Shown here one piece after another: positions 1-46,611 of a stretch of DNA of 64,000 nt (position 1 is its first letter; each line of letters opens with the position of its first letter). The translations under genes and the position numbers were made by a program. This stretch comes from an uncultured Methanoregulaceae archaeon (GTDB lineage: Archaea; Halobacteriota; Methanomicrobia; Methanomicrobiales; Methanospirillaceae): positions 992,001-1,056,000 of the forward strand of contig OY970343.1 of NCBI GenBank assembly GCA_963717525.1. The letters are read 5' to 3'. The notes below the pieces were generated by a model. That model saw only the letters and a program-made list of their open reading frames with translations, was not told where the DNA came from and made no database searches.

Positions 1-2000
1 GGTAGATGACGTAGTCGGCGATGACCGACCGGGTCAGTTTCACGAGATCGATCTCGTCTTTGAGTTCCGTAACCTGCTTCTGCAGGAGGGCGATCTGCCC
101 TGCGGTGCATTGATAATCGGCAATCTTCTCTTCGGCAAATTTCTTGTCCCGTGCTGCATTAGCAATTGCGACATCGGCATCCCGTAGAGCCGCATAGGTC
201 TCTCTTTGCCGGGTTTCGGCTGCGTCGATCTCTGCCGGGTTGAACGGCGCTTTAAGGATTTCCTGTTCCAGCTTTACGAGGTCGGCATTCCGTTGATTTA
301 TCCGTTCCACGAGACCGGCGATCTGCTGTTTTAAGGAGACAGCCTGCCCGATCTTCTTCCCAAGTTCAGAAAACCGGGCCTGCACCTTCCGGACCGCGAC
401 CTCTTCCTGCCCGGCTGCACTGAAGGCCGATGGATCGAACGCGAGCTGTGCAAGGGCATCGGCACAGGCCTGTTCCTCCCGCAGCTTTGCGGCATGCTGG
501 GCGGTGAGTTCTGCGATCGTGTTCTCAAACTCCGCCCGGCGTTTCAGTTCTGCCGCGAGGGTCCGGAGCTCGCCCGTGACCGGTCGCAGTGCTTCGACTG
601 CCGCCTTTTCCTTCTCAACGATCTCCTGCTCTGCGAGATCGGCAACCGCCTTGTCTTCCAGCTCACGGAGTTTTGCATTAAACTCCTGCTCCAGGTTGCC
701 GAAATGGGTACCCAGTTTCTGCCCGGCAGAGTGGGCAGGTCCCGTCAGGCCCGGCCTTAACAATCGTCGCCCGGTCGGCTTCGATCTTCTCCCGCTCTTC
801 TTTGTACTGCTTCTGCTGTGCCAGAAGAGTGCTGGTCCGCTTTATGAGTTCTGCAAGCCGGAAGCTCACCGCGGTTTCGAGCCGGTCGTCCGCAATCTCC
901 GGGCCGGCGCCAAGACTCTGCCTGACCGAGGCAGCACGCCGGGCGTACTCCTCTGCTTCTTGTGCAAGATCGGCAAGCCGGCCTTTTTCCTTCTCGATCC
1001 TTGCTGTTATCTCCGCGGCCTGTGTTTTGCAGAACCCGAGTTCACCGGTGACCCGCTGGTGTTCGGCTTTCTGCCGGGTGAGCGTATCAAGCCGGGCCCG
1101 GATCTCCGCATACGACCCGGCAGTCTTTTCAAGCCCGTGATACTCGGCCTCGTCGTTTTTGAGCAGGGCAAGGGCCGATTCGATCGCCTGCTGCTGTGTC
1201 GTTTCGGTGGCGATCTCCTTTTTTATTGCCTGCTGCTGCTGCACGAGCCGGTCGTGTGCGGCTTTTTTCTCCGCGAGGACTTTAAGCCCCGTGTCGATCT
1301 CCGCCCGCTGCTTTGTGAGAAAATCTTTTTGCTTTTCGTGCCCTGCAATTGCGGCGGTGAAGGTGACGAGCGAATCTTTGAGGCGTGCGAGCTCGTCTTC
1401 GCTCTGCTGCCCGGCAAGAGCTTCAAGACGGCCGGTCAGGTTCCGGAGTTCGTCAGTCTTCTCGTCGCCCCGCTCCTTTAAGATCTTCTGGCTCTCCACG
1501 CTGAGGTAATCGATCCCGAGTGCTTTCAGGAACCACTCCTTCCTCTTCCCCGGGGTATTTTCAAGGAGGGTGAGGAGGTCTTTCTGCGCTGCGTAGATCG
1601 TGTTTTTGAAATCCACCGGGCCCATGCCCAGAGTCCGGCGCACCTCCGCCTCCACCTGGCTGACGCCGCTTGCGCGGAGCTTCCCATCCTTGTAGAAGTT
1701 CGCGTCGTGCTGGACGGTCTTTCCTTTCTTGAACGTCCTCACGACCGAGTACGCTTCACCGCCCACGGAAAAGTCGAGCCTGACCTCGCACTTGGCCTTT
1801 GGCGACGCAAAACCTGAAACAATGTAGTCGGCGGCAATACCGGTTGCCTGCACGCCGTACAGCGCAAAGAAGATCGCCTGCACGAGGCTCGATTTGCCCG
1901 TGCCGTTGTTCCCGAGGATGCCGGTGATGCCGTCCGAGAATTCGATCCTCTCGTCCCGGAACCGCTTAAAATTCTTCAGGACGAGCCGGTCAATGATCAT
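1..2000 (-). CDS. rad50: Rad50/SbcC SMC-family ATPase (runs off window start; 1-nt frameshift near 722)
   Basis: Starts MIIDRLVLKNFKRF; Walker A GNNGTGKS; Q-loop YAAQ; coiled coil; zinc hook CPLC. Removing one base near 722 restores CRQKLGTHFGNLEQEF. Overlaps mre11. Confidence 0.9.
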
Positions 2001-3138
2001 CGCCCACCTCCCGGTGCTCTTCCATGACCGCGGCGAGCACCTCGCGGCCGGTGGCGGCGACAAACGCCTTCTGCTTCGCGGAGAGCTGCTGCTTGTCGAG
2101 GAACGTCGAAAACTCCGCGAGGTAATCGATCGCCCGGACGTCCTGCTGGAGGGGTACGGCCATCTCTTCACCAGCGGCAACGACCCGGATCTTGAGGTCG
2201 AGGAGCAGCTCCCGCACCGGGGCAAGGGCCCGCATATCAATCCCCTTCCCGTGTTCCCGGGACATTCCGTCGAGCGTGACCTGCGCAAGCGAGAACTTTT
2301 CGGGCCGTTTCTGTTCCACCCGCCCGATGATCTCGTTAGTGATCTCTGCCATGTGCCGGCCGGCGCAGGCGATCGTGCCGCAGTCGTACATCGGCGTCCT
2401 GGGCAGGTCGAGGTGGTCGACCGTGTGCCTCGCGGGATCGACCACGAGGCCCCCCTTCTCATCCCGGATCTCGCCGTACGTCAGGTACTCGGTGGAGCCC
2501 GAGTACCATGCGTTCGTGGTGATCTGCGACTGGTTATGGTAATGGCCGAGCGCGATGTAATCGAATCTGTCGGACAGGATCGTGCTGTCGAGCTCGTGCT
2601 CCGCGACGGTCGCAAGCCGCTTGTCCTTTATCGCCGTCGCAAGCCCGTGGGTCACGAGCACGTTGTTCCTGCCGGGCGCGAGTTCGATTTTATCGTAGGC
2701 CGTGCGGTAATCCTCCACCCGGAGCATGTTCGGGATCAGGTGGAAGACCGTATCCCCGATCTCCACCCGCTCGTATTTGAACGAGTACGCGGCGTGGATC
2801 TCCGAGGGGTGGTAGTCGAGGACCGCGAGCGGCGACGTGGTGTACCGGGTCTTCACCATGCTGTGGTTGCCGGTCACGATCACGAGCGGGATGCCCGCCT
2901 CGTGAAGCCGCGTGAGCGCGTCGAGCACGGTGGTATAAGCCCGGGTCTTGGGCTTGACCGTATCGAAAAGATCGCCCGCGTGGACGAGGACATCCGGCTT
3001 TTCCCGGATGATAACGTCAATCGCAGCAAGGAAGTTATCGTAGATCTGCTTCTCGCGCAGGTTCATCCCCGAGTCCGGGTCGAGCCGGGAAAATGCGGCG
3101 AGGCCGAGGTGCGTGTCTGCGATGTGGACGAGCTTCAT
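1990..3138 (-). CDS. mre11: Mre11/SbcD metallophosphoesterase nuclease
   Basis: Motifs ADTHLG, AGDLFD, GNHS, ALGHYH, YSGS; coupled to rad50. Confidence 0.93.
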   Translation of the reverse strand: MKLVHIADTHLGLAAFSRLDPDSGMNLREKQIYDNFLAAIDVIIREKPDVLVHAGDLFDTVKPKTRAYTTVLDALTRLHEAGIPLVIVTGNHSMVKTRYTTSPLAVLDYHPSEIHAAYSFKYERVEIGDTVFHLIPNMLRVEDYRTAYDKIELAPGRNNVLVTHGLATAIKDKRLATVAEHELDSTILSDRFDYIALGHYHNQSQITTNAWYSGSTEYLTYGEIRDEKGGLVVDPARHTVDHLDLPRTPMYDCGTIACAGRHMAEITNEIIGRVEQKRPEKFSLAQVTLDGMSREHGKGIDMRALAPVRELLLDLKIRVVAAGEEMAVPLQQDVRAIDYLAEFSTFLDKQQLSAKQKAFVAATGREVLAAVMEEHREVGDDH

Positions 3139-3290: not shown

Positions 3291-3503
3291 ATGCTTCGAC
3301 AAGCCGTTCAATCGAGTAATCTAAAATCGGTTGGGTATGACTATCAACAAAATCTTCTTGAAATTGAATTTATTAGCGGTGGGATTTATCAGTATAGTAG
3401 TGTGCCAAAGGATATGTACTCTGGTTTAATGGATGCACCCTCCCATGGAAAATTCTTTGCCCGATTCATTAAAGATCGTTTCCCCACAAAAAGAGTGCGT
3501 TAA
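3291..3503 (+). CDS. KTSC domain protein
   Basis: V.SSNLKSVGYD...LEIEF..GGIYQY..VP..Y..LM.A.SHGKFF..FIK is the KTSC pattern. Confidence 0.9.
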   Translation: MLRQAVQSSNLKSVGYDYQQNLLEIEFISGGIYQYSSVPKDMYSGLMDAPSHGKFFARFIKDRFPTKRVR

Positions 3504-3514
3504 CCCTTGATACC

Positions 3515-5540
3515 ATGATAATCGAATCGCTTCATGTGAAAAATTTTCGTTCGATCTATGATGAAAACATTTCTTGTGAGCGACTTACGGCTTTAGTTGG
3601 AGCAAATGGTTCCGGGAAATCATCATTTTTACATGCATTAAGGTTATTTTATTCAAAATCTCCAAAGATCGACTTTGAGGATTTTTACAATCGGAACATT
3701 GACGTTGAGATATCCATTGCTATAACCTTTAAAGATCTATCAGATAACGCGAAAACGCGTTTTTCCACTTACCTTCAAAATGAAAACCTAACTGTAGAAC
3801 GAGTTTTTTACTATCGTGAAGGAAATAGACTTGTAAACGCATATCATGGATCAACCCTCCAAAATCCGGATTTCAATAAAATTAAAGAAACTATAGGTAT
3901 TGGAGATAAGGGAAAAACGGCCCAAAGTCATTATTATGCTTTAAAAGAAAATTTGAAGTATCGAGTATTACCCGAATGGAGTAGACGCCTCCAAGATAAT
4001 ATTGTTAATTTAGAAAAATGGGAATCTGACCATTCGGATGACTGTGTCAGAATACGTGATAACGGTCAATTTTTTGGTTTTACAGAAGTGGCGCAAGGAT
4101 ATTTGGGAGAATTCACTCAATTTTTATTTATCCCTGCAGTGAAGGAAGCTACTGAAGAGGCTTATGAAATCAAAAGACTCCGTTTTGTCGAAATTAATGT
4201 ATTTTGTTGTCCGGAGTGTACTCGAAGAAAAAAAAGAAGTAATCAAGCTTCGAGAAACAACTCAAACAAATTATCAAAAAATAATGAATCCTGAAAAAAT
4301 TACTGAGCTTAAAGAATTATCGACTCAATTGACAACAACTCTAAAGCAATATGTTCCTGATGCACAAATTGAATTAGCATGGTTGCCATTAGGACAAATT
4401 GAAATCCCGTTACCCTCTGCCGAAGTAAAATTGTGGGAAGATGGGTATTCATCAACAGTTGATCGTACCGGACATGGTCTACAGCGAGTCTTTATTCTCA
4501 CCATATTGCAACATCTTTCAGTAATTCAAATTCGTTATGCGCAATTGCGTAAAGACGAAGCCAAAAATGAGAGTGATGGCGAAAAAGGGGCAACAATAGT
4601 TGAAAGTCCCGATCTTATTTTAGCGATTGAAGAACCTGAATTATTTCAACATCCAAATCGACAACGCCATTTTGCTAAAGTCCTTTTGCAGTTAGCTGAA
4701 GGGACATTACCCGGTGTTGCAGAAAAAACTCAGATTATATATTGTACTCATTCGCCACTTTTCGTGGGCATAGACCGAATTAATGAGATTCGGCTTTTAA
4801 AAAAGGTGAATAATTCCCAACTTCCTAAAATCACCAAAGTTGTTTGTACAGACTTAAAAAGAATTGCTGAAAAAATGTGTGTCATTTATGAAGTGGGGGC
4901 CGGGCATTTTACTGAAGATAACATCGTGCCACGGTTAAAATCAATAATGACTCCTTGGATGAATGAAGGATTTTTTGCAGATGTTGTTGTCCTTGTTGAA
5001 GGAGAAGATGATCGTGCAGCATTACTAGGTGCTGCAAATTCAATAAATATCGATTTTGAATCAAAAGGCTTCGCAATTATTCCTTGCGGTGGAAAATCAA
5101 ATATTGATCGACCATATCTTATTTTTACAGAATTAGGAATTTCAGCATATATTTTGTGGGACGGGGATTCCGGATTAGGTGAAACGGAAGGTAATTGCGT
5201 ATCTTGTGGAAGACCATTAGACAAAAAACCAAAGCCCGAAGAAAATCGAAGATTATTACGATTAATCGGTTCTGATGTTGTAGATTGGCCAAAATTTATT
5301 AATCAAAAGGGGGGCTGTTTCGAAAAAAACTTGGAAACAACATTAAAAGAAGAACTGGGGCCAGAATTGTATGAGTCATTAATTCTAAAGTATCAAATAG
5401 AATTCTCAATTCCCGAAAAGAAAAATGCTCAAAAAAATCCTGTCGTCCTTATGAATGTGATAAAATCAGCTAGAGAACAAGGAAAATCTTCAGCTTCACT
5501 TGAACGGATTATCCAAAACATAAATGAATTGAAAAAATAG
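3515..5540 (+). CDS. OLD-family ATP-dependent endonuclease (ABC ATPase + TOPRIM), split by a frameshift at ~4165-4176
   Basis: Walker A GANGSGKS; signature GHGLQR; Walker B/D-loop IEEPELFQHP; H-switch CTHS; TOPRIM LVEGEDD and WDGD. Confidence 0.88.
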
Positions 5541-6633
5541 TGGTTTGTATTCTTATGTTACCAGATTGGATCTCCCCAGGAAATTTTGTCATTACTCAAG
5601 AAGTTATCACTCTTTTTGAAAATAAACGAGAAATATTAGTTAAAATTGTTGATTATCTCTCTAAACTAGAGACCAAACCATTATTTATTACTATAGATTC
5701 GTTAAAGATGATCAAAGACAAAAATTTACGGGACCTAATTAATCCAATAATATCGACCCACAATTCGAAATTTGTTCAAAAGTCATTATGCAATCAAAAA
5801 AGAAATAATTGTACTGTTGGAATTATTCAGATGAATTTTGAAAATGAGAATAAATTTCCATTTAAATTAAAAGACGAGAAAGAAATCACCAAAAAAATTG
5901 AAAAAATTTTGAATTATTTAGAACCTTATAATATTGATATACTCTGTTTCCCGGAACTGAGTACCTCGAAAAAAATCATTGATGAGATTTTTTTAAAACA
6001 AGATAAAAAAATTCCGATTATAATTGGAGGCTCATTTTATAATGGTAATTTCAATTCATGTCCGATCATAATTGATTATCTTGGTAGAAACGAGATAGTA
6101 ATTCAAGAAAAAATTAATCTTTCAAAATGGGAAGATTCGTGTTTCCCTCAGAAAGCGATGTGCAAAGGTCGCACAATTAACATACCGATTTTGGCAATAT
6201 ATCTGTGTTACTTTGTTTAGATGGATTAGTGGAATCAAATAACTTACTTCAATTTTGTTCTGATAATGCCATAGATCTTGATTTGATCTTTATTATCTCT
6301 AAAACGAAGGACGTTTCGGAGTTTCACAATAAGATGCATGAACTTTCGACAAGGAATCGAAAATACTGCATATTTGTAAATTCTGCAACATTTGGACATT
6401 CGGGTTTGTACACCCCTTTGGAACGTGACTTTCATGACGAAAAATTAAATGCCTATCAATATCCATCTTGCACTGATGATAAATCGAAATGTATAATATT
6501 GAAACCAACCGAAGAAAGAATAATGATAATTAATCTTGAAGTTCGAGAAAAAGCCGAATATCATCCAACAAAAATTGTTAACCAATATTCAAATATAAAA
6601 TTGGTTTTAGATAAAAAATGGGAGGCCGGTTAA
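5540..6633 (+). CDS. Nitrilase/carbon-nitrogen hydrolase-fold protein with N-terminal extension (frameshift at ~6180)
   Basis: VGIIQMN, DILCFPELS (Glu), IIIGGS, QEKINLS (Lys); in the shifted frame TDFGNISVLLCLD (Cys) and IFVNSA. Confidence 0.75.
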
Positions 6634-6634
6634 T

Positions 6635-7510
6635 ATGGATGCGAATGATTGGACAACCCAAGCGTATGAAATTCACGTCACAGTCATGGGGCAAGACAAA
6701 GATGCATTCGTTGATATATTTCAATTGATGAAAAAATTAATTATTAATGAAAGTCAGCAAATTAAACCGGAAAGTGATTTTATTGAAGTATGCAGAGAGG
6801 TTACTGCTTCAGAAGATCATGATTTTGAGTATCTTTGTGGTGAAATAAAAAATTATAAAAAAACTATTGTGCCCCAGTATGACGATAAAACTGGCGGAGA
6901 AATCGTCGATAAAATTGAAGAACCCTTACGTCATGGACGTATTCGTTTTTTATTGGCTTCGAAAAAAGATAACCGCAGAGATCGAATCCAAAAAATTTAC
7001 GCCATTTTTTCAAAAAAAGGATATTACAATATTGAAAGATCATTTAACTATATAGTAAAAAAAATTCTTGATGAATATCCCTTAATTGCAAACTTTCGGT
7101 TGGGATACCCTGTCCCATTGATCGATACAAACATTCAAGAATTTTTTGGCTCACTTGATACAATTTCAAAAATCGATGTTGCAGATGTGAGATTGCCGAA
7201 TCCTAGGACCATTTCTGACTACATGAAATCTCTAATCACATTGAACTATCCCAATAGGATTTTATTTGAGGGCCAACCTCTCAAAAAGGACGGCCCAATT
7301 ATAGTCGATTTGATTAATATGTCTTACGATGAAAAATATGGAAAGACTTTGGAAATAATCGGTGAAAAAAATCATGAGAAACTTCGATATTCAAGAAGTG
7401 AATTAGCAACGTTTCCGATACCGTTTTCTGATATTGAATCTAGTAAAAACATTTTTGAAAAATTATTGCCTTTATTGAAAAAATTAGTTGCCAAACAAAA
7501 ATTAAAATAA
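6635..7510 (+). CDS. Hypothetical protein, last gene of the AT-rich operon
   Basis: 291-aa ORF starting 2 nt after the upstream stop; same AT-rich composition; T-tract follows the stop. Confidence 0.75.
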   Translation: MDANDWTTQAYEIHVTVMGQDKDAFVDIFQLMKKLIINESQQIKPESDFIEVCREVTASEDHDFEYLCGEIKNYKKTIVPQYDDKTGGEIVDKIEEPLRHGRIRFLLASKKDNRRDRIQKIYAIFSKKGYYNIERSFNYIVKKILDEYPLIANFRLGYPVPLIDTNIQEFFGSLDTISKIDVADVRLPNPRTISDYMKSLITLNYPNRILFEGQPLKKDGPIIVDLINMSYDEKYGKTLEIIGEKNHEKLRYSRSELATFPIPFSDIESSKNIFEKLLPLLKKLVAKQKLK

Positions 7511-8849: not shown

Positions 8850-9794
8850 TTACGTTTTCTTTACTCGATAATTCGTAATTATCAACTCGTTAATATCTCC
8901 ACGTCGTGCGCCATTGCAGTTGATCATGCGCTTTGCAGGGACACGCTCGATGTAATATTCCGCGAAGAGATCATCAAAGAACGAATCGTCAGGATTCTCA
9001 TTCTTCGGATCAGAATTACTGAGCATAATCTTTGCGCCTTTTCCATCGAGTTCTTTGAAAAACTCAACCAGACGCATCTGATCATCCTCAAAAAAACCGT
9101 TTTTTGAATAAGATGTGAACGACGAGGTTTCGTTAAGTGGACGATAGGGCGGATCGAAGTATACGAATGTGTGTTTGTCCACAAATTTCTGGCATTGGGT
9201 GAAATCTCCCAGAATGATTTTCGTGGATTTCAATAATGTAGAAACATCCTTCAGATTATCTTCGTTCAGGATTTCCGGATTTTTGTATCTTCCGAACGGA
9301 ACGTTGAATTCTCCTTTTCGATTTACCCGGAACAAGCCGTTGTAACAGGTACGATTCAAAAAAATAATCTGGGCCACCCGTTCAATCCTTGTGGTGTGAT
9401 CTTTTTTAGATTTTATTTCTGGCAATTTCTGGTTAAACGCATCCCGAATTTCATAATAGAATGCTTCTCTCTTCTTGTCACTCTTGGAAAGATAACCTGA
9501 TTCCAAACTTTCTAACTCAGAAATCAATTTTTTTACGGATTGTTTAATCACGCGATAGGAAAGAATCAGTTCTTCGTTGATATCGCAAATGTAGCACTCT
9601 TCAAAAGAAAATCTCTGGTTGAGATAAAAGAAAACCGCTCCTCCGCCAATGAACGGCTCGACATATTTTGTAATTTTTTCTTTCCTGAATTCTCCCGGCA
9701 AACGTTTGCTAAACTCGTTGAGTAACTGGGTTTTGCCTCCGGCCCATTTGAGAAAAGGTCGTGCTGCTGGAACAAGTTTGGTTTGTTTTGCCAT
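8850..9794 (-). CDS. dam: Dam-family DNA N6-adenine methyltransferase (cognate to the REase)
   Basis: FLKWAGGK, YVEPFIGGG, YNGLFRVN, NVPFG, DPPY, SNS, ELIITNY. Confidence 0.93.
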   Translation of the reverse strand: MAKQTKLVPAARPFLKWAGGKTQLLNEFSKRLPGEFRKEKITKYVEPFIGGGAVFFYLNQRFSFEECYICDINEELILSYRVIKQSVKKLISELESLESGYLSKSDKKREAFYYEIRDAFNQKLPEIKSKKDHTTRIERVAQIIFLNRTCYNGLFRVNRKGEFNVPFGRYKNPEILNEDNLKDVSTLLKSTKIILGDFTQCQKFVDKHTFVYFDPPYRPLNETSSFTSYSKNGFFEDDQMRLVEFFKELDGKGAKIMLSNSDPKNENPDDSFFDDLFAEYYIERVPAKRMINCNGARRGDINELIITNYRVKKT

Positions 9795-10145: not shown

Positions 10146-10482
10146 GGATCACCCCTCCCCCACCCCCAAAATACGCCCTGTACGGCCCCGGATTCCCCCC
10201 AACCAGCTCCGGAAAACCCCGTAAAATGCCCGGATTTGGGGGCCATCCGGAAGTCGGTTATACGGGGTCATTTTGGAAAAATACCGCGTAATTGCCCCCT
10301 GATTTTGATCCCCAAAAAGGCCTTTTTTTCAATTCCGGCATACTTTGGGCCGTTCAAAGGGAGATCGGCCACCGGAGACGCGATAGCGGCCGATTCTCGC
10401 GGTGTCGGAATCCGGCGGTTTTAAGGGCGTATTTTGGCGGGAAAACGGTGATTTGAGGGGGGTTTTCTACGACGGTAAAGGA
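10146..10482 (+). repeat. ~340-bp dispersed non-coding element, copy 1
   Basis: Shares GGCCATCCGGAAGTCGGTTATACGG, CCGGCATACTTTGG, GAGATCGGCCACCGGA, GTCGGAATCCGGCGGTT and GTGATTTGAGG with copies at 14952 and 27478; inverted arms CCAAAATACGCCCT / AGGGCGTATTTTGG. Confidence 0.9.
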
Positions 10483-10670: not shown

Positions 10671-11246
10671 ATGCTCCTCTTCCTCGACACCGAAACCACC
10701 GGTCTCCCCAAATCCGCAACTGACCCCGTAGAAAAATGGCCGCGGATCGTCCAGCTGGCGTGGTCCTTATACGACAATGACGGGACCTGTGAAAGCCGGA
10801 ACAGTTTTATTATTTACCCGACGGACTTTTCCATTCCCATTGACTCTGCAAGGATTCACGGGATCACGACCGAGCGGGCAAAAGCAGAGGGCGTGTCGCT
10901 CTATAAGGTGCTCCCGCAGTTCAATGCCGATGTGGAAAAAGCGGAAACGGTCGTTGCCCACAATCTCGATTTTGACCTGCCGATTGTCACGACCGAATTT
11001 TTGCGATGCAGCCTTGAGACAGGTCTTGCAGAAAAACAAAAATTCTGCACCATGAAAACCCCGCAGGTTGTCTCCTGGTGCAAACTTCCTTCAAAGTCCG
11101 GTCGGGGATACAAGTGGCCGACCTTAAACGAATTACATCTCCGGTTATTCGAAACAGAATTTGTGGACTGCCATGATGCCGGCGATGATGTGGAAGCCTG
11201 TGTGAGATGTTATTTTGAGTTACAAAAGCGGGGGATTATCGGATAA
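10671..11246 (+). CDS. DEDDh 3'-5' exonuclease (DnaQ-like)
   Basis: FLDTETTGL, IHGIT, VAHNLDFD, HDAGDDV. Confidence 0.9.
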   Translation: MLLFLDTETTGLPKSATDPVEKWPRIVQLAWSLYDNDGTCESRNSFIIYPTDFSIPIDSARIHGITTERAKAEGVSLYKVLPQFNADVEKAETVVAHNLDFDLPIVTTEFLRCSLETGLAEKQKFCTMKTPQVVSWCKLPSKSGRGYKWPTLNELHLRLFETEFVDCHDAGDDVEACVRCYFELQKRGIIG

Positions 11247-11293
11247 GAGTATCCTAAAAAAAAGAAATTGTGAATGTGCACTCTTTATGATCC

Positions 11294-11701
11294 TTAAATA
11301 ATCTCTTCAATCTTCCGGATAAGGTGTTCTGCATGACCGACCGCCGATTCCGCTTCGGTTTCTGAAATTGATCCTGCCGTATCATAGACCGAACTGTGCC
11401 GCTTGCGTCGCATCCGGTCAAAGATAATCGCATCATGCGGCTCAACAAACAGTTCGACAAATTTTACAACCGCGATATGCTGGCTGGCTCCATCCGGCCG
11501 GTAGCCTTTCGCAAACATCAGCGCCCGGCCTGCCTGGAGTACCGCGTTATACGCGATAGTATATGCCCAGTCCCGATCCGTTGGAAGGATCGTACGTGAG
11601 GTACGGAGGTCCCGGTACGCAAGCGCCAGGGAATCATCGACTTTTTTCTTATCGTAAGGGAGTCGCTTGATCAGTCCTTCCCGTTCGAGATCCTCAATCA
11701 T
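11294..11701 (-). CDS. HEPN domain toxin
   Basis: AY.A..QA.RAL...GYRP...H and RRKRH.S.YD (Rx4-6H); overlaps the MNT gene. Confidence 0.85.
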   Translation of the reverse strand: MIEDLEREGLIKRLPYDKKKVDDSLALAYRDLRTSRTILPTDRDWAYTIAYNAVLQAGRALMFAKGYRPDGASQHIAVVKFVELFVEPHDAIIFDRMRRKRHSSVYDTAGSISETEAESAVGHAEHLIRKIEEII

Positions 11702-12257
11702 CGCAGGTACCGCTGATTACGATCTTCTCTTCTTTCATTACATTCTTTACGAAAGGATCGTGCTGTTTCTTTTTCTGTGCAAATTCCGCAAGCGTCATGA
11801 GCGTGTAGTTGATCTCACGGCCGGTCTCCTGTTCACACGAATGGATGATCGGAATAAGCCGGTCCTCATCGATTGCTCCCACGATAAAGAGGTCGATGTC
11901 GCTTTTTGCCCCGGCAGACCCGCGGGCAAACGATCCGTAGATAAACATGCACGAGATCTTTTCATCGGCAAGGGCACGCTTCAGGATGCCGGAAATTCCT
12001 TCGGTTTTTAATACAATCTTCTGGAGCTCGGCAAAAAGGAAATGGCCGGTGTTCACCGTGTAATACTGCTGGTTTCCTTTCTTTTGCCCGACAAGAAGAC
12101 CAAAGGATTCAAGGTTGCTGAGTTCCCGGCGTACTGCATTGATATTCTCACCGGTTGTCCGGACAATCTCGCGGATATAGAACTCGCTCCCCGGATTGAG
12201 CAGGAAGAGCGTAAGGAGCTTCACCCGGGTCTTTGAAGAGATAAGCGCTTCCAGCAT
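11694..12257 (-). CDS. wHTH + minimal nucleotidyltransferase (MNT) antitoxin
   Basis: N-terminal HTH (FYIREI.R...NAVRREL); YGSFARG...SDIDLFIVG. Confidence 0.88.
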   Translation of the reverse strand: MLEALISSKTRVKLLTLFLLNPGSEFYIREIVRTTGENINAVRRELSNLESFGLLVGQKKGNQQYYTVNTGHFLFAELQKIVLKTEGISGILKRALADEKISCMFIYGSFARGSAGAKSDIDLFIVGAIDEDRLIPIIHSCEQETGREINYTLMTLAEFAQKKKQHDPFVKNVMKEEKIVISGTCDD

Positions 12258-12332
12258 GAATACATAATGTATTCAATTGAGTAAAAAATGTATTCATTGT
12301 CCGGGCCGCGTAAAAATTAAAAAAAAAAGTTC

Positions 12333-13199
12333 TCACGGTCTGCCGGTCGCTGCCTCCGGACACACTTTCGCAAACTTGCAGCTCATACACTCCCTCTGCG
12401 AAGGCCTCGCAGGAAAATCCGGGAACTCATAACTCGCGTTCATCGTCGAAAACTCCCGTGTTATCATCTCCTGAATTTCGCATAAGCGCTCGACAAAAAA
12501 AGGATATGTCTTTGTCTCCTCGGTCTTCAAAAAGACGAGTTCGCTCTTGATCATATCGGGGCCCAGCTTATAGTACTGCATCGCCCAGAGCACGTAGGCC
12601 GCCATCTGGAGCTCGGTCTCGTACTCGTTGTCGTCCCTGCCGGTCTTCCAGTCAGAAAGGACGATTGTACCATTGGGAAGTCGGCTTGCAAAATCCACCT
12701 TGACCGTTACTTCTACATCGCCGATCCGGAACCGGTCGAACTCTTCATGCCGCAGGCATTCCCGGTTCGCGTATTCAGGCCAGACCATGCCAAAGAATGT
12801 GTCCAGACAGGTTTTCCCGCTCTCTTCCATCCCCTCAAAGAACGATCCGCCGAACTGCTCACCGTTCCGGTATTCAGTCAGGAGTTCGGTTGCCATGTCC
12901 TTATACCGGGCGACTTTTCGCAGGTAGGTACTCATGGCCTCGGCCGGATTCATCGGTTTATTCTCGCAATGGAGCTGGATCTGCTGGTCGATGATATCGT
13001 GGATGAGCTGCCCTTGGACGACAAACTTGGAATCAAAATTCTTGAAATACCGTATTTTTTCGGGATCAACAATCGCCCCGCTCTTCACGTACGGTGCGAT
13101 GTACTCGTAATAGTACTGCCGCTGGCACCGGTTCCAGACCCGGTGTTTGGTAAACGACCACGTATTGATCGTGAAGAAAAAGGGATCCAGCTCAGGCAC
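12333..13199 (-). CDS. PD-(D/E)XK nuclease, RecB/AddB/Cas4-like with Fe-S Cys set
   Basis: WSF...C.RQYYY; G..IH; VDF...DWKTG; QMAAY; CMSCKFAKVC. Confidence 0.82.
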   Translation of the reverse strand: MPELDPFFFTINTWSFTKHRVWNRCQRQYYYEYIAPYVKSGAIVDPEKIRYFKNFDSKFVVQGQLIHDIIDQQIQLHCENKPMNPAEAMSTYLRKVARYKDMATELLTEYRNGEQFGGSFFEGMEESGKTCLDTFFGMVWPEYANRECLRHEEFDRFRIGDVEVTVKVDFASRLPNGTIVLSDWKTGRDDNEYETELQMAAYVLWAMQYYKLGPDMIKSELVFLKTEETKTYPFFVERLCEIQEMITREFSTMNASYEFPDFPARPSQRECMSCKFAKVCPEAATGRP

Positions 13200-15809: not shown

Positions 15810-17912
15810 TTACACCCCCATGAGCATGAGCAGCATATCGATAATTTTTATCCCGATGAACGGTGCGATGAGCCCGCCAACCCCGTAGATGAGAATGTTG
15901 TTCCGCAGGGATTCTTCAGCCGACATGGCCCGGTACTTCACGCCATGAAGGGCAAGCGGGATGAGAATGACGATAATGATCGCGTTGAAGATGACTGCAG
16001 ACAGGATGCCATTGTGGAGCCTGAGGATGTTCATTGCCCCAAGAGCCGGGTAGGTTGAGGCAAACGCAACCGGGATGATGGCGAAATATTTCGCGATATC
16101 GTTTGCTATCGAGAACGTGGTCAGCGCCCCCCGGGTCATAAGGAGCTGCTTTCCGATCTCGACAATATCGATCAGTTTTGTCGGGTTGGAATCGAGATCA
16201 ACCATGTTTGCCGCTTCGCGGGCCGGCTGCGTACCGGTGTTCATGGCAACCGCGACATCTGCCTGCGCAAGCGCCGGGGCGTCGTTCGTCCCGTCACCGG
16301 TCATGGCTACCATTCTGCCGCCGGTCTGGTATTCACGGATCAGCTTCAGTTTGCTTTCGGGAGTTGCTTCCGCAAGGAAATCATCGACACCGGCTTCTGC
16401 GGCAATAGTTGCTGCAGTGAGATGGTTGTCTCCCGTGATCATCACCGTTTTGATCCCCATCTTCCGCAGCTGGGCAAACCGTTCCTTTATTCCGCCTTTC
16501 ACAATATCTTTTAAGTGGATAACACCGAGGGCTTTCCCGTTTTTTGCAACAACGAGCGGTGTCCCCCCGGCCCGTGAGATCATATCCACAACCAGTTTCA
16601 GGTTTTCTGATACTATTTCGCCGCTCGTCTCGATGTATCTGTACATCGCATCAGCTGCACCCTTCCGGACACGGATATCGCCGTAATCGACGCCACTCAT
16701 CCGGGTCTGGCTGGTAAATGGGATGAACACCATTTCGGGACCGGATTCCGTTTCTCCCACGGTCCTTCCCCGGAGGTCGTACTTCTCTTTGGCGAGGACC
16801 ACGATACTGCGGCCTTCGGGCGTTTCATCGGCAAGAGAAGCAAGCTGGGCATTTTCCGCAAGATCGGCAACATCCATTCCGTCAACCGGTATGAATTCCA
16901 CGGCCTGCCGGTTCCCGAGCGTGATGGTTCCGGTCTTATCCAGCAGGAGGACATCGACATCCCCCGCAGCCTCGATGGCTCTCCCGGACGTTGTAATCAC
17001 GTTCCTGCGGATCAGCCGGTCCATGCCCGCAATGCCGATTGCAGAGAGGAGCCCGCCAATCGTGGTCGGTGCGAGGCAGACAAAGAGGGCGACAAGAACC
17101 GTGATAGTGACCGTAGTCCCGGCCCCGGCTGACTGGACACTGTACGCCGAGAATGCATAGAGGGTCGCGGATACGACAACAAAGATGGCGGTCAGCCCGA
17201 CAAGGAGGATATTGAGCGCGATCTCGTTGGGGGTCTTCTGCCGTTTGGCACCTTCGATAAGGCAGATCATGCGATCGAGGAAGCCTTCTCCGGGGTCCGC
17301 ACTCACCCTGACAACCAGCCAGTCCGAGAGTATCGCGGTGCCTCCCGTGACTGCACTGCGATCACCGCCGGATTCACGGATAACCGGTGCACTTTCGCCG
17401 GTGATCGCGCTCTCGTTGATGGATGCGATGCCTTCAATCACTTCACCATCCACCGGGATCGTGTCACCGGCTTTGACGTAGAAGACATCACTTTTGTGCA
17501 GGGTGGACGAGGAAACGACCGAATAATCCGAAGGCCCCGGCTCTTTTCCCTTCTCGACACTGTACCCGGGATTCAGTTTCTTTCCCGCGGTATCCTGCCG
17601 CATCTTGCGCAGGGCTTCGGCCTGTGCCTTGCCCCTGCCTTCCGCGAGTGCTTCGGCAAAGTTTGCAAAGAGGACCGTGAACCAGAGCCAGATTGAAACG
17701 GCGCCGATGAACCCTGCCGGTGCTTCTCCGTGCCCCAGGAGCGCCTGGATCCAGAGCAGGGTGGTGAGCACACTGCCGATCTCAACGGTAAACATCACCA
17801 CGTTGTGGTACAGCGTCCTGGGGTCGAGTTTGATGAACGAATCGATAATTGCGCGCCTGTAGAGTGCGTACTGGTCCGCTGCCGGGACTTTCGGGCCGGA
17901 ATGTTCAGACAT
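15810..17912 (-). CDS. kdpB: K+-transporting P-type ATPase subunit B
   Basis: [38 protein letters not shown]. Confidence 0.97.
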
Positions 17913-20343
17913 GGATAACACCCCTTCCAACCTGGATCAGGAATTCAACGACGGGGCCCAGGGAGAGCGCGGGCAGGAAGCTGAGCGCCCCGATGATGAG
18001 GATGGTAAAAACCACCCAGATGATAAAGAGCGGCCGGTGGTCCTGGAGCGTCCCTTCGCTCGCCGGCACGATCTTCTTTGTCACGAATGCCCCGGCCAGT
18101 GCGAGCGTGATAATAGCGATGGCATAGCGCCCGACAAACATGCAGACTGTTGTTGCGAGGTTGTAGAACAGGTTCGATGACAACCCGGCAAAGGCACTGC
18201 CATTGTTCTGGGAGACCGAGGAAAACGCGTACAGGATCTCGGAGAAACCATGCGGCCCCGGGTTGAAGACCGCAGCTGTTCCCGGGGCGATCGAAACCGC
18301 GATCGCGGTCCCGATCAAAATCAAAAAGATCGGAATGAGGATGTGGATTGTGGAGAGTTTCATTTCGTACGGCTCGATCTTCTTTCCGTACAATTCAGGG
18401 GTCCTCCCTACCATCAGCCCGGCAATAAACATCGCGATGATTATGAACACGAGCATGCAGTACAGGCCAGAGCCGACACCGCCGTAGACGATCTCGCCTA
18501 ACTGGATGTCGAATATCTGGACAAGACCGCCGAGCGGCATAAACGAGTCGTGCATCGAATTAACCGCACCACAGCTGGTAACGGTGGTGATGACCGAGAA
18601 GGCCGCCGACGGGACGATGCCAAAGCGTACCTCCTTTCCCTCCATGTTGCCCCCGGCCTGGAGATGGGATGGTGCCTGGTCGATCCCGAGGGGGGTAAAG
18701 GCCGGGTTGCCCCCCATTTCCGACCAGATGCCAAGGCCAAGGAGCGGCACAAAGAGCAGGGTCATCGCGACAAGGATGGCCAGCCCCTTTTTAACTGATC
18801 CGATCATCTTCCCGAACATGAAGCACAGGGATACCGGTATCAGGAGAATGGCTATTATCTCGATAAGATTCGACAACCACGTCGGGTTTTCATAGGGATG
18901 CGCCGAGTTGGCATTAAAGAACCCGCCCCCGTTTGTCCCCAGCATTTTTATGGCAATCTGCGAAGCCGCGGGGCCAAGGGAGATCGACTGCGTCGTAACG
19001 AGGTTGCCATTCGAGTCGTTTGTCGGGTTGAGGAGAGGCACGGTTACCGGCCCGCCAAATGTCTGGGGAGTTCCCTGCGAGACAAGGACAAGCGCTATGA
19101 CAAAACTTATCGGGAGAAGGATCCAAATGCCGCGGACAAGCAGTACCCAGAAGTTACCGATGGTGAGGGTTGATCTGCGCGAGAAACCGTAAATGAACGC
19201 TACCAGCACTGCCATACCCACCGCTGCGGACATAAAGTTCTGCACGGCGAGCCCCACCATCTGCGTCAGGTAGCTGACGGTGGTTTCCGGGACGTAGAAC
19301 TGCCAGTTGGTGTTCGTGGCAAAACTGACCGCGGTATTAAGCGAGAGGTCCCAGGGGACCGGGCCGGCTCCCACCGGATTGAGCGGGAGGAACTGCTGGA
19401 TCTCCTGGATGAAGAAGACAAACGCGATCCCGATGACGGAAAAGATCATCATCGCGGCGGCAAACTGCTTCCAGTCCATCTCCTCCTCGCTCCCGGCACC
19501 GCACGTCCGGAGGATCCACCCTTCCACCGGCATGATGACCGGTGACAGGAACGTCTGTTTGCCGGTGTAAACCCGGAACATGAACTCCCCCATGGGAACG
19601 AGGAGAAGTGCGAGGATAACTCCGAGCAGGATAAGGAAGACCCAGTCATTGACGGTTATCCCGAACAGGGTGTTCGCGGGCTGGCTCCTGGGCATTGCTG
19701 CCGGATTAACCGGGATCTTATGGGCACTCAGGTCATCGAGTGCCAGGTTCAGGGAGAGGACATTTACTGCAGGTTCGCCAAAGATCCCAAGCACCGGGTT
19801 TGCGGTATTGGCCGCGACCAGTGCAGAAACATCGTTTTCGGAGAGGTTCCGCACCCGTGCAATCCGTGGGACCTGGTAATAGGCGGCAGCCGGACTGATA
19901 TCCGGATCAAGACCGCTCCCTGAAGAGGTCACAAGATCAACAGGGATTGGCTGCGTATTGTCCGGGTCGACTGCGTGGAGGGCATCTGTCCGGGTCTGGA
20001 CCTCAGTAATGAGAGCCGGGTTCTGTGGGCCGTAATTTGAACCGCCGGAAGCTTCGGCATCGTAGGGCACCGGCGATGTTGCAGAGAGCCGGCCCCAGAA
20101 ATAATCCGGGGATGAAAAGGGCTGGCCTATGAGAGAAGATCCCGCAACATTTCCATCATGAACGATAAGATCCCCGTTTGCCTGTACGGGGAAGATCACC
20201 TGGGCAATACCTGTTACAACCAGGGGGTAAACAATGCCCACGAGAATCGTGAGTAAAAGAAACATCACTACGGCTGGTTTGATCTGTTTTTTGATCATCG
20301 ACCAAAGAGCTGACGACGCCCCAATGGAATCCACCTTCATCAT
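17905..20343 (-). CDS. kdpA: Fused KdpC-KdpA potassium-transporting ATPase subunit (start may be 20298)
   Basis: N-part is KdpC ([44 protein letters not shown]). C-part is KdpA ([42 protein letters not shown]). One uninterrupted frame. Confidence 0.93.
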
Positions 20344-45457: not shown

Positions 45458-46393
45458 CTACGCGTCGTAATTAGTGATCAAAAGTTCGTTTACCACGCCG
45501 CGCCGGGCGCCGTTGCAGTTGATCATCCGTTTTGCCGGCACCCGCCGGATGGTGAAACCGTCGTACAACTCGTCAAAGTAGGAATCGCCCGGGTTCTCGC
45601 TCGCGGGATCGGAGTTGCTCAGCATGACGAGCGCACCTTTCCGGTCCAGTTCCCGGAAAAATTTTGCCAGGCGCACCTGGTCGGCATCGGAAAAACCGAC
45701 CTGCGAGTAGGAAGTAAAGGAGGAGGTCGCGTTCAGCGGCCGGTAGGGCGGATCGAGGTACACGAAGGTCCGGTTGTCAACGGTACTCCTGCACCGGGTA
45801 AAATCGCCACAGAGGATACGGGTGTGTGCAAGCAACAAAGCGACACCCTGCAGGTTCTGGTAATTAAGGATCTCCGGGTTTTTGTACCGACCGAACGGGA
45901 CATTGAACCCGCCGCTTTTGTTCACCCGGAAGAGTCCGTTATAACAGGTGTGGTTGAGGAAGATGATCTGCGCTGCCCGCCGGATCCACCGGGAATTATA
46001 GCGGCTGAAATCGGTCGCAGCACGCTCCCGGTTAAAAGTCTCCCGGACATCGTAATAGTACGCTTCCTGCTGCGGGCCGCTTTTCACCCGGTATTCGGAC
46101 TCGATTGCCGCGAGTTCGCTTGTGAGTTTCAATAGAGACGTCCGGATCACCCGGTACGTAAGGACCAGTTCCTCGTTGATATCGCAGACCGTGGACTTCT
46201 CGAACGGGAAGCACCGGGAAAGGGAGAAGAATACTGCACCGCCACCGATGAACGGCTCGATGTACCGGGTGATCACCCGGTCCCTGAATGCGGCAAGTGG
46301 CAGGTATTGGGCAAACTCGCCGAGTAACTGCGATTTCCCCCCGGCCCATTTCAGGAATGGCCGCACCCCGGAAGTTCGTCCCTGTCGTGCCAT
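45458..46393 (-). CDS. dam: Orphan Dam-family DNA adenine methyltransferase
   Basis: FLKWAGGK, EPFIGGG, DPPY, ELLITNY; no adjacent REase. Confidence 0.93.
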   Translation of the reverse strand: MARQGRTSGVRPFLKWAGGKSQLLGEFAQYLPLAAFRDRVITRYIEPFIGGGAVFFSLSRCFPFEKSTVCDINEELVLTYRVIRTSLLKLTSELAAIESEYRVKSGPQQEAYYYDVRETFNRERAATDFSRYNSRWIRRAAQIIFLNHTCYNGLFRVNKSGGFNVPFGRYKNPEILNYQNLQGVALLLAHTRILCGDFTRCRSTVDNRTFVYLDPPYRPLNATSSFTSYSQVGFSDADQVRLAKFFRELDRKGALVMLSNSDPASENPGDSYFDELYDGFTIRRVPAKRMINCNGARRGVVNELLITNYDA

Positions 46394-46611
46394 AGGAATA
46401 ACGCGGGCAGTCCGCACCTATCAGGTATCGCATTACTCGGTTATCATAGCTGGGATGCAGATCGGCAGGTCCTTTTTTTGTAGCATTCATGGTCCCCGGG
46501 ACGAGATATTTTCCCGGCCCATTCCCCGATGTGACAAATACAGTGCGGGGTCGATTTTATACCCCTACCCCCCCCACAACTCCCTATGCGGTTGTCGCGG
46601 GTGAAGGAAGC

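Follow-up and report, generated by a model that had tools for sequence, protein, structure and literature searches.

Do the four tightly packed genes beside mre11 in an uncultured Methanoregulaceae archaeon form one antiviral system, or do they represent separate systems that share a site? We addressed this question for positions 3291 to 7510 of a 64,000-nucleotide stretch of contig OY970343.1 (positions 992,001 to 1,056,000, assembly GCA_963717525.1), referred to as the window. A first-pass annotation had regarded the genes as a single module in which an OLD nuclease acts together with a nitrilase-fold protein and accessory proteins. According to our analysis, the locus probably holds two independent defence cassettes that adjoin each other in a slot next to mre11, namely a KTSC-OLD pair and a nitrilase with an orphan open reading frame (ORF) as effector and controller, with both enzymes broken in this strain. 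The four genes are as follows.

3291..3503, plus strand: KTSC-domain protein, 70 aa, intact; PF13619, E 1.5e-24
3515..5540, plus strand: OLD-family ABC ATPase-TOPRIM nuclease, class-1-like, broken (pieces 3515-4294 and 4164-5540); AAA_15 and PF20469; PADLOC Old, E 5.5e-17 and 2.1e-34
5540..6633, plus strand: divergent nitrilase (C-N hydrolase), broken (pieces 5540-6220 and 6184/6205-6633)
6635..7510, plus strand: orphan ORF, 291 aa, intact, soluble; no family assigned

A KTSC gene is the conserved partner of the OLD nuclease

The nuclease is a member of the OLD family, as Walker A, signature, Walker B, H-loop, TOPRIM Glu and DxD motifs are found in one chain, which in the window copy is divided between two frames. 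Residues K35, G320/G322/Q324, E373, H412, E495, D549 and D551 are invariant in all 43 aligned OLDs, including the intact protein of a metagenome contig (L050). The best PADLOC model is Old (8.6e-53), and the closest structure is the class 1 TsOLD (6p74, 2e-42), with GajA, Eco8 and PtuA matching at 1e-8 or weaker. In L050 and in a locus from a congener (L007) the OLD is continuous, at 674-678 aa. The closest titled relative is from Methanoregula, and in the OLDs of that genus the TOPRIM DxD is followed by a CxxC insert (in the C-terminal piece in the window; residues 558-569 in L050), which is absent from most of the 43 aligned relatives (gaps in 36-39 rows).

To define the neighbourhood of this clade we took the best 80 of 130 relatives from a scan built on OLD alone. 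KTSC adjoins OLD in 55 of the 80 loci, directly upstream in 53 (of 75 loci having enough flank) and downstream in two; five of the 25 loci without KTSC are cut off upstream. Plain blastp recovers KTSC in 52 of the 80 loci, three of the 55 being found by profile only, and a few copies are decayed. The rest of 894 kb of sequence held no further, separate KTSC gene. The linkage spans 19 phylum labels from both bacteria and archaea, a spread read from a FastTree tree that has long outgroup branches and was put to no other use. Distances among OLDs correlate with those among the KTSC proteins (43 pairs, rho 0.51, none of 5000 permutations as high), although relatedness inflates this value. As a control, KTSC occurs in 100 of 107 genomes of the genus, but 28 of the 30 top-scoring loci lack an OLD at a distance of up to 1.5 kb.

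The remaining neighbours do not follow this pattern. Neither the orphan nor a co-directional nitrilase occurs in any of the 80 clade loci; a nitrilase profile matched at one locus, where the gene is a canonical PF00795 member on the opposite strand. Thus, the first-pass annotation, which cast the nitrilase as partner of the OLD, had overlooked KTSC as the conserved one (55/80 versus 0/80). GajB is absent from all 80 loci (blastp with three GajBs; 66 loci have at least 1500 nt downstream), and a reverse transcriptase (RT) is found in a single one, L007. Other neighbours are variable, the commonest downstream group being a DUF1156 methylase (12 loci; seven of eight scanned were confirmed). KTSC-OLD is nested directly upstream of this methylase in L065, L067-L069, L077, L079, L082, L086, L111 and L131, and several DUF1156-linked loci sit behind RmuC or a SNF2 helicase. 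One apparent KTSC-OLD fusion (L103) was rejected, since its KTSC part is a decayed remnant that precedes the OLD start in the same frame.

When compared with the OLD classes 1-4 set out in PMC12392090, the protein is closest to class 1 (P2 Old, Thermus scotoductus OLD 6p74, Vibrio cholerae Vc OLD), which, in the accessible text of that source, likewise combines an N-terminal ABC ATPase with a C-terminal TOPRIM domain in one chain. As here, neither UvrD nor a retron is required. However, class 1 OLDs are single-gene systems by definition, whereas the present clade has the adjacent KTSC. Gabija (class 2) and the Eco8-type retrons (class 3) share the ATPase-TOPRIM chemistry, but the clade lacks GajB and, apart from L007, an RT. 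An RT was found neither in the window nor in L050 nor in the archaeon's own genome, and L050 and L007 gave no Rfam match. The absence of a helicase and an RT noted in the first-pass annotation thus holds, as four queries found neither a GajB-like helicase nor a retron RT in the own genome, which is 87% complete. PARIS (class 4) uses the same chemistry as well, but its ATPase and TOPRIM are encoded by separate genes, split at the AriA/AriB boundary, whereas the split in the window results from a one-base insertion inside the ATPase.

The word KTSC does not occur in the accessible text of PMC12392090, nor in that of PMC11472057. KTSC-containing HerA systems offer a parallel, in that KTSC is likewise accessory to a defence ATPase-nuclease, although the ATPase is HerA and not OLD; the accessible part of PMC9503650 mentions KTSC with HerA as unpublished observations. 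In the solved Sir2-HerA system, HerA (PDB 8wiv chain A) has a KTSC domain at its C-terminus (residues 628-696, E 6.5e-27). Among solved structures, the KTSC protein matches PDB 7x8c (E 4e-25), which we take to be a single-stranded DNA-binding protein, and the C-terminus of HerA 8wiv (E 2e-12). KTSC is termed DNA-binding in the accessible text of PMC9503650 and RNA-binding in that of PMC7824862. A complex prediction for intact OLD and KTSC from 43-row alignments gave a score of 0.00 with unfolded controls and counts neither for nor against binding.

Literature searches, in which subscription papers were mostly outside reach and supplements were excluded, found no report of the pair. Taken together, the linkage makes KTSC plus a class-1-like OLD a well-supported, apparently unpublished unit, to judge from gene neighbourhoods.

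The two gene pairs have separate histories

An intact version of the locus in L050 allowed us to compare the histories of its parts. This contig has all four genes in the same slot, with products of 70, 674, 366 and 291 aa. Among codons that specify the same residue in the window and in L050, 224 of 503 (45%) differ in KTSC plus OLD residues 1-600, but only 54 of 680 (8%) in the last OLD block (about 75 codons), nitrilase and orphan. The values for most of the adjoining restriction-modification (R-M) pair and for mre11 are 157 of 571 and 3 of 34, respectively, and the steps along the alignment are sharp. Because of the difference in synonymous divergence, the histories of KTSC-OLD and nitrilase-orphan must differ. 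Either the nitrilase-orphan pair may have moved between lineages, or KTSC-OLD and the R-M pair may have been replaced by other alleles; the latter would be simpler given mre11. As far as codon divergence can tell, the pattern shows separate inheritance and not the lack of a functional link.

It seems improbable that the four genes constitute a single system in which the OLD is controlled or assisted by nitrilase and orphan, as a rare and recently assembled extension of KTSC-OLD. Window and L050 share gene order and tight spacing, both enzymes broke in one strain, as would be expected if loss of one frees the other, and the last OLD codons have the low divergence of the nitrilase. Yet OLD pairs with nitrilase or orphan in none of the 80 clade loci and in none of 42 other loci upstream of mre11, and the KTSC-OLD of the congener L007, 67% identical to that of L050 in the OLD, has a retron-type RT and not a nitrilase behind it. 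In addition, KTSC and OLD 1-600 are five-fold more diverged between window and L050 than nitrilase-orphan. Three distant nitrilase-family members were found in 400 genomes of the order or class (largely the same genomes), and none has an OLD in the DNA read, about 1.5 kb on each side. The proposed module of OLD, nitrilase and accessory protein is therefore not borne out: KTSC is linked to the clade while nitrilase and orphan are not, L007 has an RT instead, and the two halves differ in divergence. Of the conserved synteny that the first-pass annotation had asked for, one instance exists, the intact four-gene copy of L050, but in the OLD clade the non-co-occurrence that would speak for independent insertions is largely what we see.

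We thus prefer two independent cassettes, broken in this strain, but several points weigh against this view. Two OLD relatives on viral contigs lack KTSC. The nitrilase-orphan pairing is known from two strains that are 95-97% identical, and both copies lie directly behind KTSC-OLD with near-zero gaps. A nitrilase-orphan copy without OLD was not seen, the neighbours of the closest nitrilase and orphan relatives (P0004 and P0002, respectively) not being readable. Since an OLD was still present after the allele swap, a loose link is compatible with the divergence data. Finally, as regards the breaks, three of the public runs that carry them (X1, X5 and X9) are possibly the source runs of the assembly itself, and contigs lose rare alleles.

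Both enzymes are broken in the window strain

The OLD frame is disrupted by one extra base near position 4167 (relative to two relatives), inside the ATPase. In the nitrilase gene, 7 nt are missing near 6182, immediately before the catalytic Cys, which is thereby placed in another frame. Contigs from four of four public runs, one from each of four studies, read through both breaks without gaps or mismatches, which rules out sequencing error as their source. Consequently, the frameshifts are not repairable from reads, as had been envisaged at first; the run contigs place both breaks in the DNA itself. For rad50 (window 678-1993) all three covering runs disagree with the shift at 722, having one base fewer, and this frameshift is an assembly error.

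Since the breaks are unchanged across runs and an intact four-gene copy resides at the same locus in L050, the window strain holds a decayed copy. The ratio of nonsynonymous to synonymous substitution (dN/dS) between window and L050 is 0.03-0.28 across the genes (0.03 for the orphan, which is 99% identical), which, as a codon-based estimate, shows that selection acted on the genes until recently, and strongly on the orphan. In the nitrilase, derived changes number 8 versus 5, with another 10 unpolarised. These values and the dN/dS range indicate that the breaks are recent. An internal stop is also present in seven of the 80 OLD-clade members. Probably both enzymes are inactive in the window strain while their two small partners are intact, a state that the first-pass annotation had missed.

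A conceivable objection is that the broken genes remain functional as split proteins, through re-initiation (ATG 4164 and GTG 6205) or frameshifting. The extra base in fact sets an ATG in frame with the C-terminal part of the OLD, with GAGG a few bases upstream, identical breaks are fixed in all four runs, the broken N-terminal nitrilase piece is present on 23 contigs, and the count of derived changes reveals no excess decay in the nitrilase. Nevertheless, we deem this scenario highly improbable, as the 7-nt deletion takes out residues of a conserved strand and leaves Glu and Lys on one piece and the Cys on the other, an out-of-frame tail is added to each N-terminal piece, and every other relative examined is continuous at the break positions.

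A nitrilase of the defence-effector branch and its orphan neighbour

The intact 366-aa nitrilase of L050 scores best with the PADLOC model CARF_nitrilase (E 1e-33), followed by RT_UG5-nitrilase (1e-8); the former match is confined to positions 177-440 of 457, the nitrilase part of the model. Its Pfam score of 18.4 is below the 23.2 cut-off, and no Pfam family matched the N-terminal stretch of about 85 aa. The predicted model, with a predicted local distance difference test (pLDDT) score of 71, aligns with CN-hydrolases over residues 88-344 (Z 19.4, root-mean-square deviation 2.8, 215 residues). Residues E139, K191, E198 and C228 are conserved. Membership of the nitrilase superfamily is supported by both the alpha-beta-beta-alpha fold, taken from the predicted model, and the Glu-Lys-Cys triad; the triad spotted in the first-pass annotation is real, and E139, K191 and C228 are kept in P0004.

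On these sequence matches, we assign the nitrilase to the defence-effector branch that is known from fusions with CARF or RT. It shares the fold and the Glu-Lys-Glu-Cys residues with the DRT1/DRT11 RT-nitrilases, as far as these are described in the accessible text of PMC13275509 and PMC13436386, and with the CARF-nitrilase of PADLOC. Whereas those are fused to RT or CARF, the present protein stands alone with a short N-terminal part and an orphan neighbour; no fusion or linkage to RT or CARF and no nearby RT were detected. Its relatives are P0004 (62%) and distant proteins, several of them fused to TPR, nSTAND3 or other domains. The viral contigs searched contained no copy. Members of the same branch form the C-terminal part of a 753-aa protein (L053:40-2301), the front of which appears PfkB-type kinase-like by eye, and part of a 581-aa protein (L002:601-2346) adjoining a type I R-M specificity-like gene.

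Among 1.84 billion representatives, a single relative of the orphan was found (P0002, 58%). The orphan has no transmembrane segment, its maximum 19-residue hydropathy being 0.61 (1.48 for the nitrilase). Language-model features place it nearest to clusters named DUF4747 or DUF6731 (Atlas score 0.95, 207-212 shared features), and hidden Markov models (HMMs) of both families gave no match. The predicted model is unusable (pLDDT 37), and a Foldseek search with it returned nothing at E<=0.001. No match was found in phages or plasmids, and none in genome contigs by exact patterns. A match at E 7e-4 in 400 phylum genomes was taken as chance, and PDC-M04B was discarded because it reached only E 0.02-0.04 and had no such match for P0002.

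A likeness to RexA/DUF4747 is thus a weak lead. In RexA/RexB-like pairs with DUF4747 (lambda, Sbash, CarolAnn, Butters), as covered in the accessible part of PMC7542560, the protein is likewise soluble, like the orphan with its ~290 aa and its features nearest DUF4747-named clusters, but it has a four-helix membrane partner; the orphan locus has none, nor does the orphan match the DUF4747/DUF6731 HMMs. The orphan may be a putative regulator or sensor of the nitrilase.

The pair is very rare and the evidence for it is thin. Accordingly, we weighed an alternative that retains the KTSC-OLD cassette but treats nitrilase and orphan as unrelated single-gene passengers, the one a stand-alone effector or metabolic amidase, the other a RexA-like gene that acts alone or has lost its partner. 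Most nitrilase relatives are encoded by single genes as fusions with TPR, nSTAND3 or other N-terminal domains, DUF4747 proteins usually partner the four-helix membrane protein (according to the accessible text of PMC7542560) that is missing here, and only two closely related strains are known to carry the pair. We nonetheless find this unlikely, given the spacing of 1 nt and the identical low divergence across both genes. Moreover, for each gene a single relative is known, at comparable distances (62% and 58%), and the nitrilase, having no large sensor domain fused to it, would have room for a separate sensor.

Possible mode of action

In the preferred scenario of two cassettes, KTSC-OLD would be a two-gene variant of class 1 OLD. 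The ATPase would gate the TOPRIM nuclease, which might nick viral replication intermediates or cut host nucleic acid, thereby ending the infection. The small KTSC protein, as an accessory that binds nucleic acid, could deliver single-stranded DNA or RNA to the nuclease or adjust the trigger of the latter. It is not obligatory, since 25 of the 80 relatives have none (including those cut off upstream). In the accessible text of PMC12392090 the trigger of class 1 OLD nucleases is still open, and the 70-residue KTSC, conserved across bacteria and archaea, would offer an easy handle on it.

The second cassette would most likely comprise an effector and its controller. By analogy with the proposal for DRT1, the nitrilase could hydrolyse an amide or amine of an essential metabolite and so abort the infection, and the soluble orphan may replace the sensor domain (CARF, RT, TPR or STAND) to which such nitrilases are fused elsewhere. 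The substrate of defence nitrilases such as DRT1 is likewise described as open in the accessible part of PMC13275509. If our interpretation is correct, the unfused nitrilase with its separable controller would be a handle on this substrate.

A bolder reading would make KTSC-OLD a fifth OLD class, with KTSC as a sensor for single-stranded nucleic acid that activates the nuclease and is reused on HerA, and at the same time nitrilase-orphan the first stand-alone nitrilase defence system, in which a RexA-like sensor is combined with an amide-hydrolysing effector that replaces the membrane channel. Nitrilase-orphan would then be a compact two-gene system for identifying the substrate of defence nitrilases. 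We regard this combined proposal as doubtful.

The mre11 slot and other features of the window

The four genes point away from mre11 and converge on an R-M pair, as first described and now supported by PADLOC and Pfam matches. The flanking genes are the following.

1990..3138, minus strand: mre11, conserved anchor of the variable defence slot, outside the cassettes; PF00149
7548-8837, minus strand: REase of the type II R-M pair; PADLOC REase_II 5.8e-62
8850-9794, minus strand: Dam-type MTase of the type II R-M pair; PADLOC MTase_II 1.2e-97

ORF coordinates confirm the tight co-directional arrangement, with gaps of 11 nt (KTSC/OLD) and 1 nt (nitrilase/orphan) and a 1-nt overlap between OLD and nitrilase. 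An alternative nitrilase start at ATG 5555 would leave a 14-nt gap; gene-called database copies begin at the Met there, as does the similarity to P0004. The AT-richness is also real, as the GC content of 33.6% compares with 54.5% in the 2.29-Mb genome and is below all 542 tiles of 4.2 kb (minimum 34.8%). No additional gene lies between orphan and R-M pair, and the latter is, on its codon divergence from L050, which differs from that of nitrilase-orphan, a separate cargo of the slot. Promoter/terminator and repeat scans of the locus gave chance-level results, the promoter scan being of bacterial type.

Strong matches to mre11 (E<=1e-100) were present in 52 of 108 genomes of the genus, and we compared 42 upstream loci, five of them shorter than 5 kb; PADLOC was run on 38 loci (107 of 205 ORFs). 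The cargo varies among the 42 loci. KTSC-OLD recurs in one of them (L007), and nitrilase and orphan in none. Eighteen of the 38 loci have a PADLOC match at E<=1e-40, five of these being Gabija pairs of congeners. The slot upstream of mre11-rad50 is a variable defence hotspot and, in this methanogen genus, would be a ready source of archaeal defence candidates. Together with the catalytic motifs of the OLD and the effector branch of the nitrilase, it bears out the defence context assumed from the start.

Several of the slot loci deserve mention. In L007 (7861-12016) an RT of 576 aa follows about 160 nt after KTSC-OLD (PADLOC RT_III-A 2e-97); its C-terminal 229 aa belong to no Pfam family and Rfam gave no match, so that a retron with an unknown fused effector is possible. 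L008 (4590-14918) contains a 182-aa ORF, an OLD of 33% identity and then four genes of 1483, 252, 519 and 361 aa, which from their size may be Wadjet-like. L013 (6549-13728) has five tightly packed AT-rich genes, one with a triple-CARF match (3e-105) and the other four with no PADLOC match at 1e-40. L022 (4904-7867) encodes a 988-aa protein with an N-terminal SEFIR match.

Further along the window, a 34-nt imperfect inverted repeat flanks a multi-copy stretch at 10163-10440, and run X5 has 4,557 extra letters between the copies, which suggests an insertion site. A DEDD exonuclease, an MNT-HEPN pair and a PD-(D/E)XK nuclease at 10671-13199 recur in shuffled order in the mre11 slot of congeners. 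An 812-aa KdpC-KdpA fusion is encoded at 17905-20343, and a second Dam-type methylase at 45458-46417, the DNA of which is 66% identical to that of L050.

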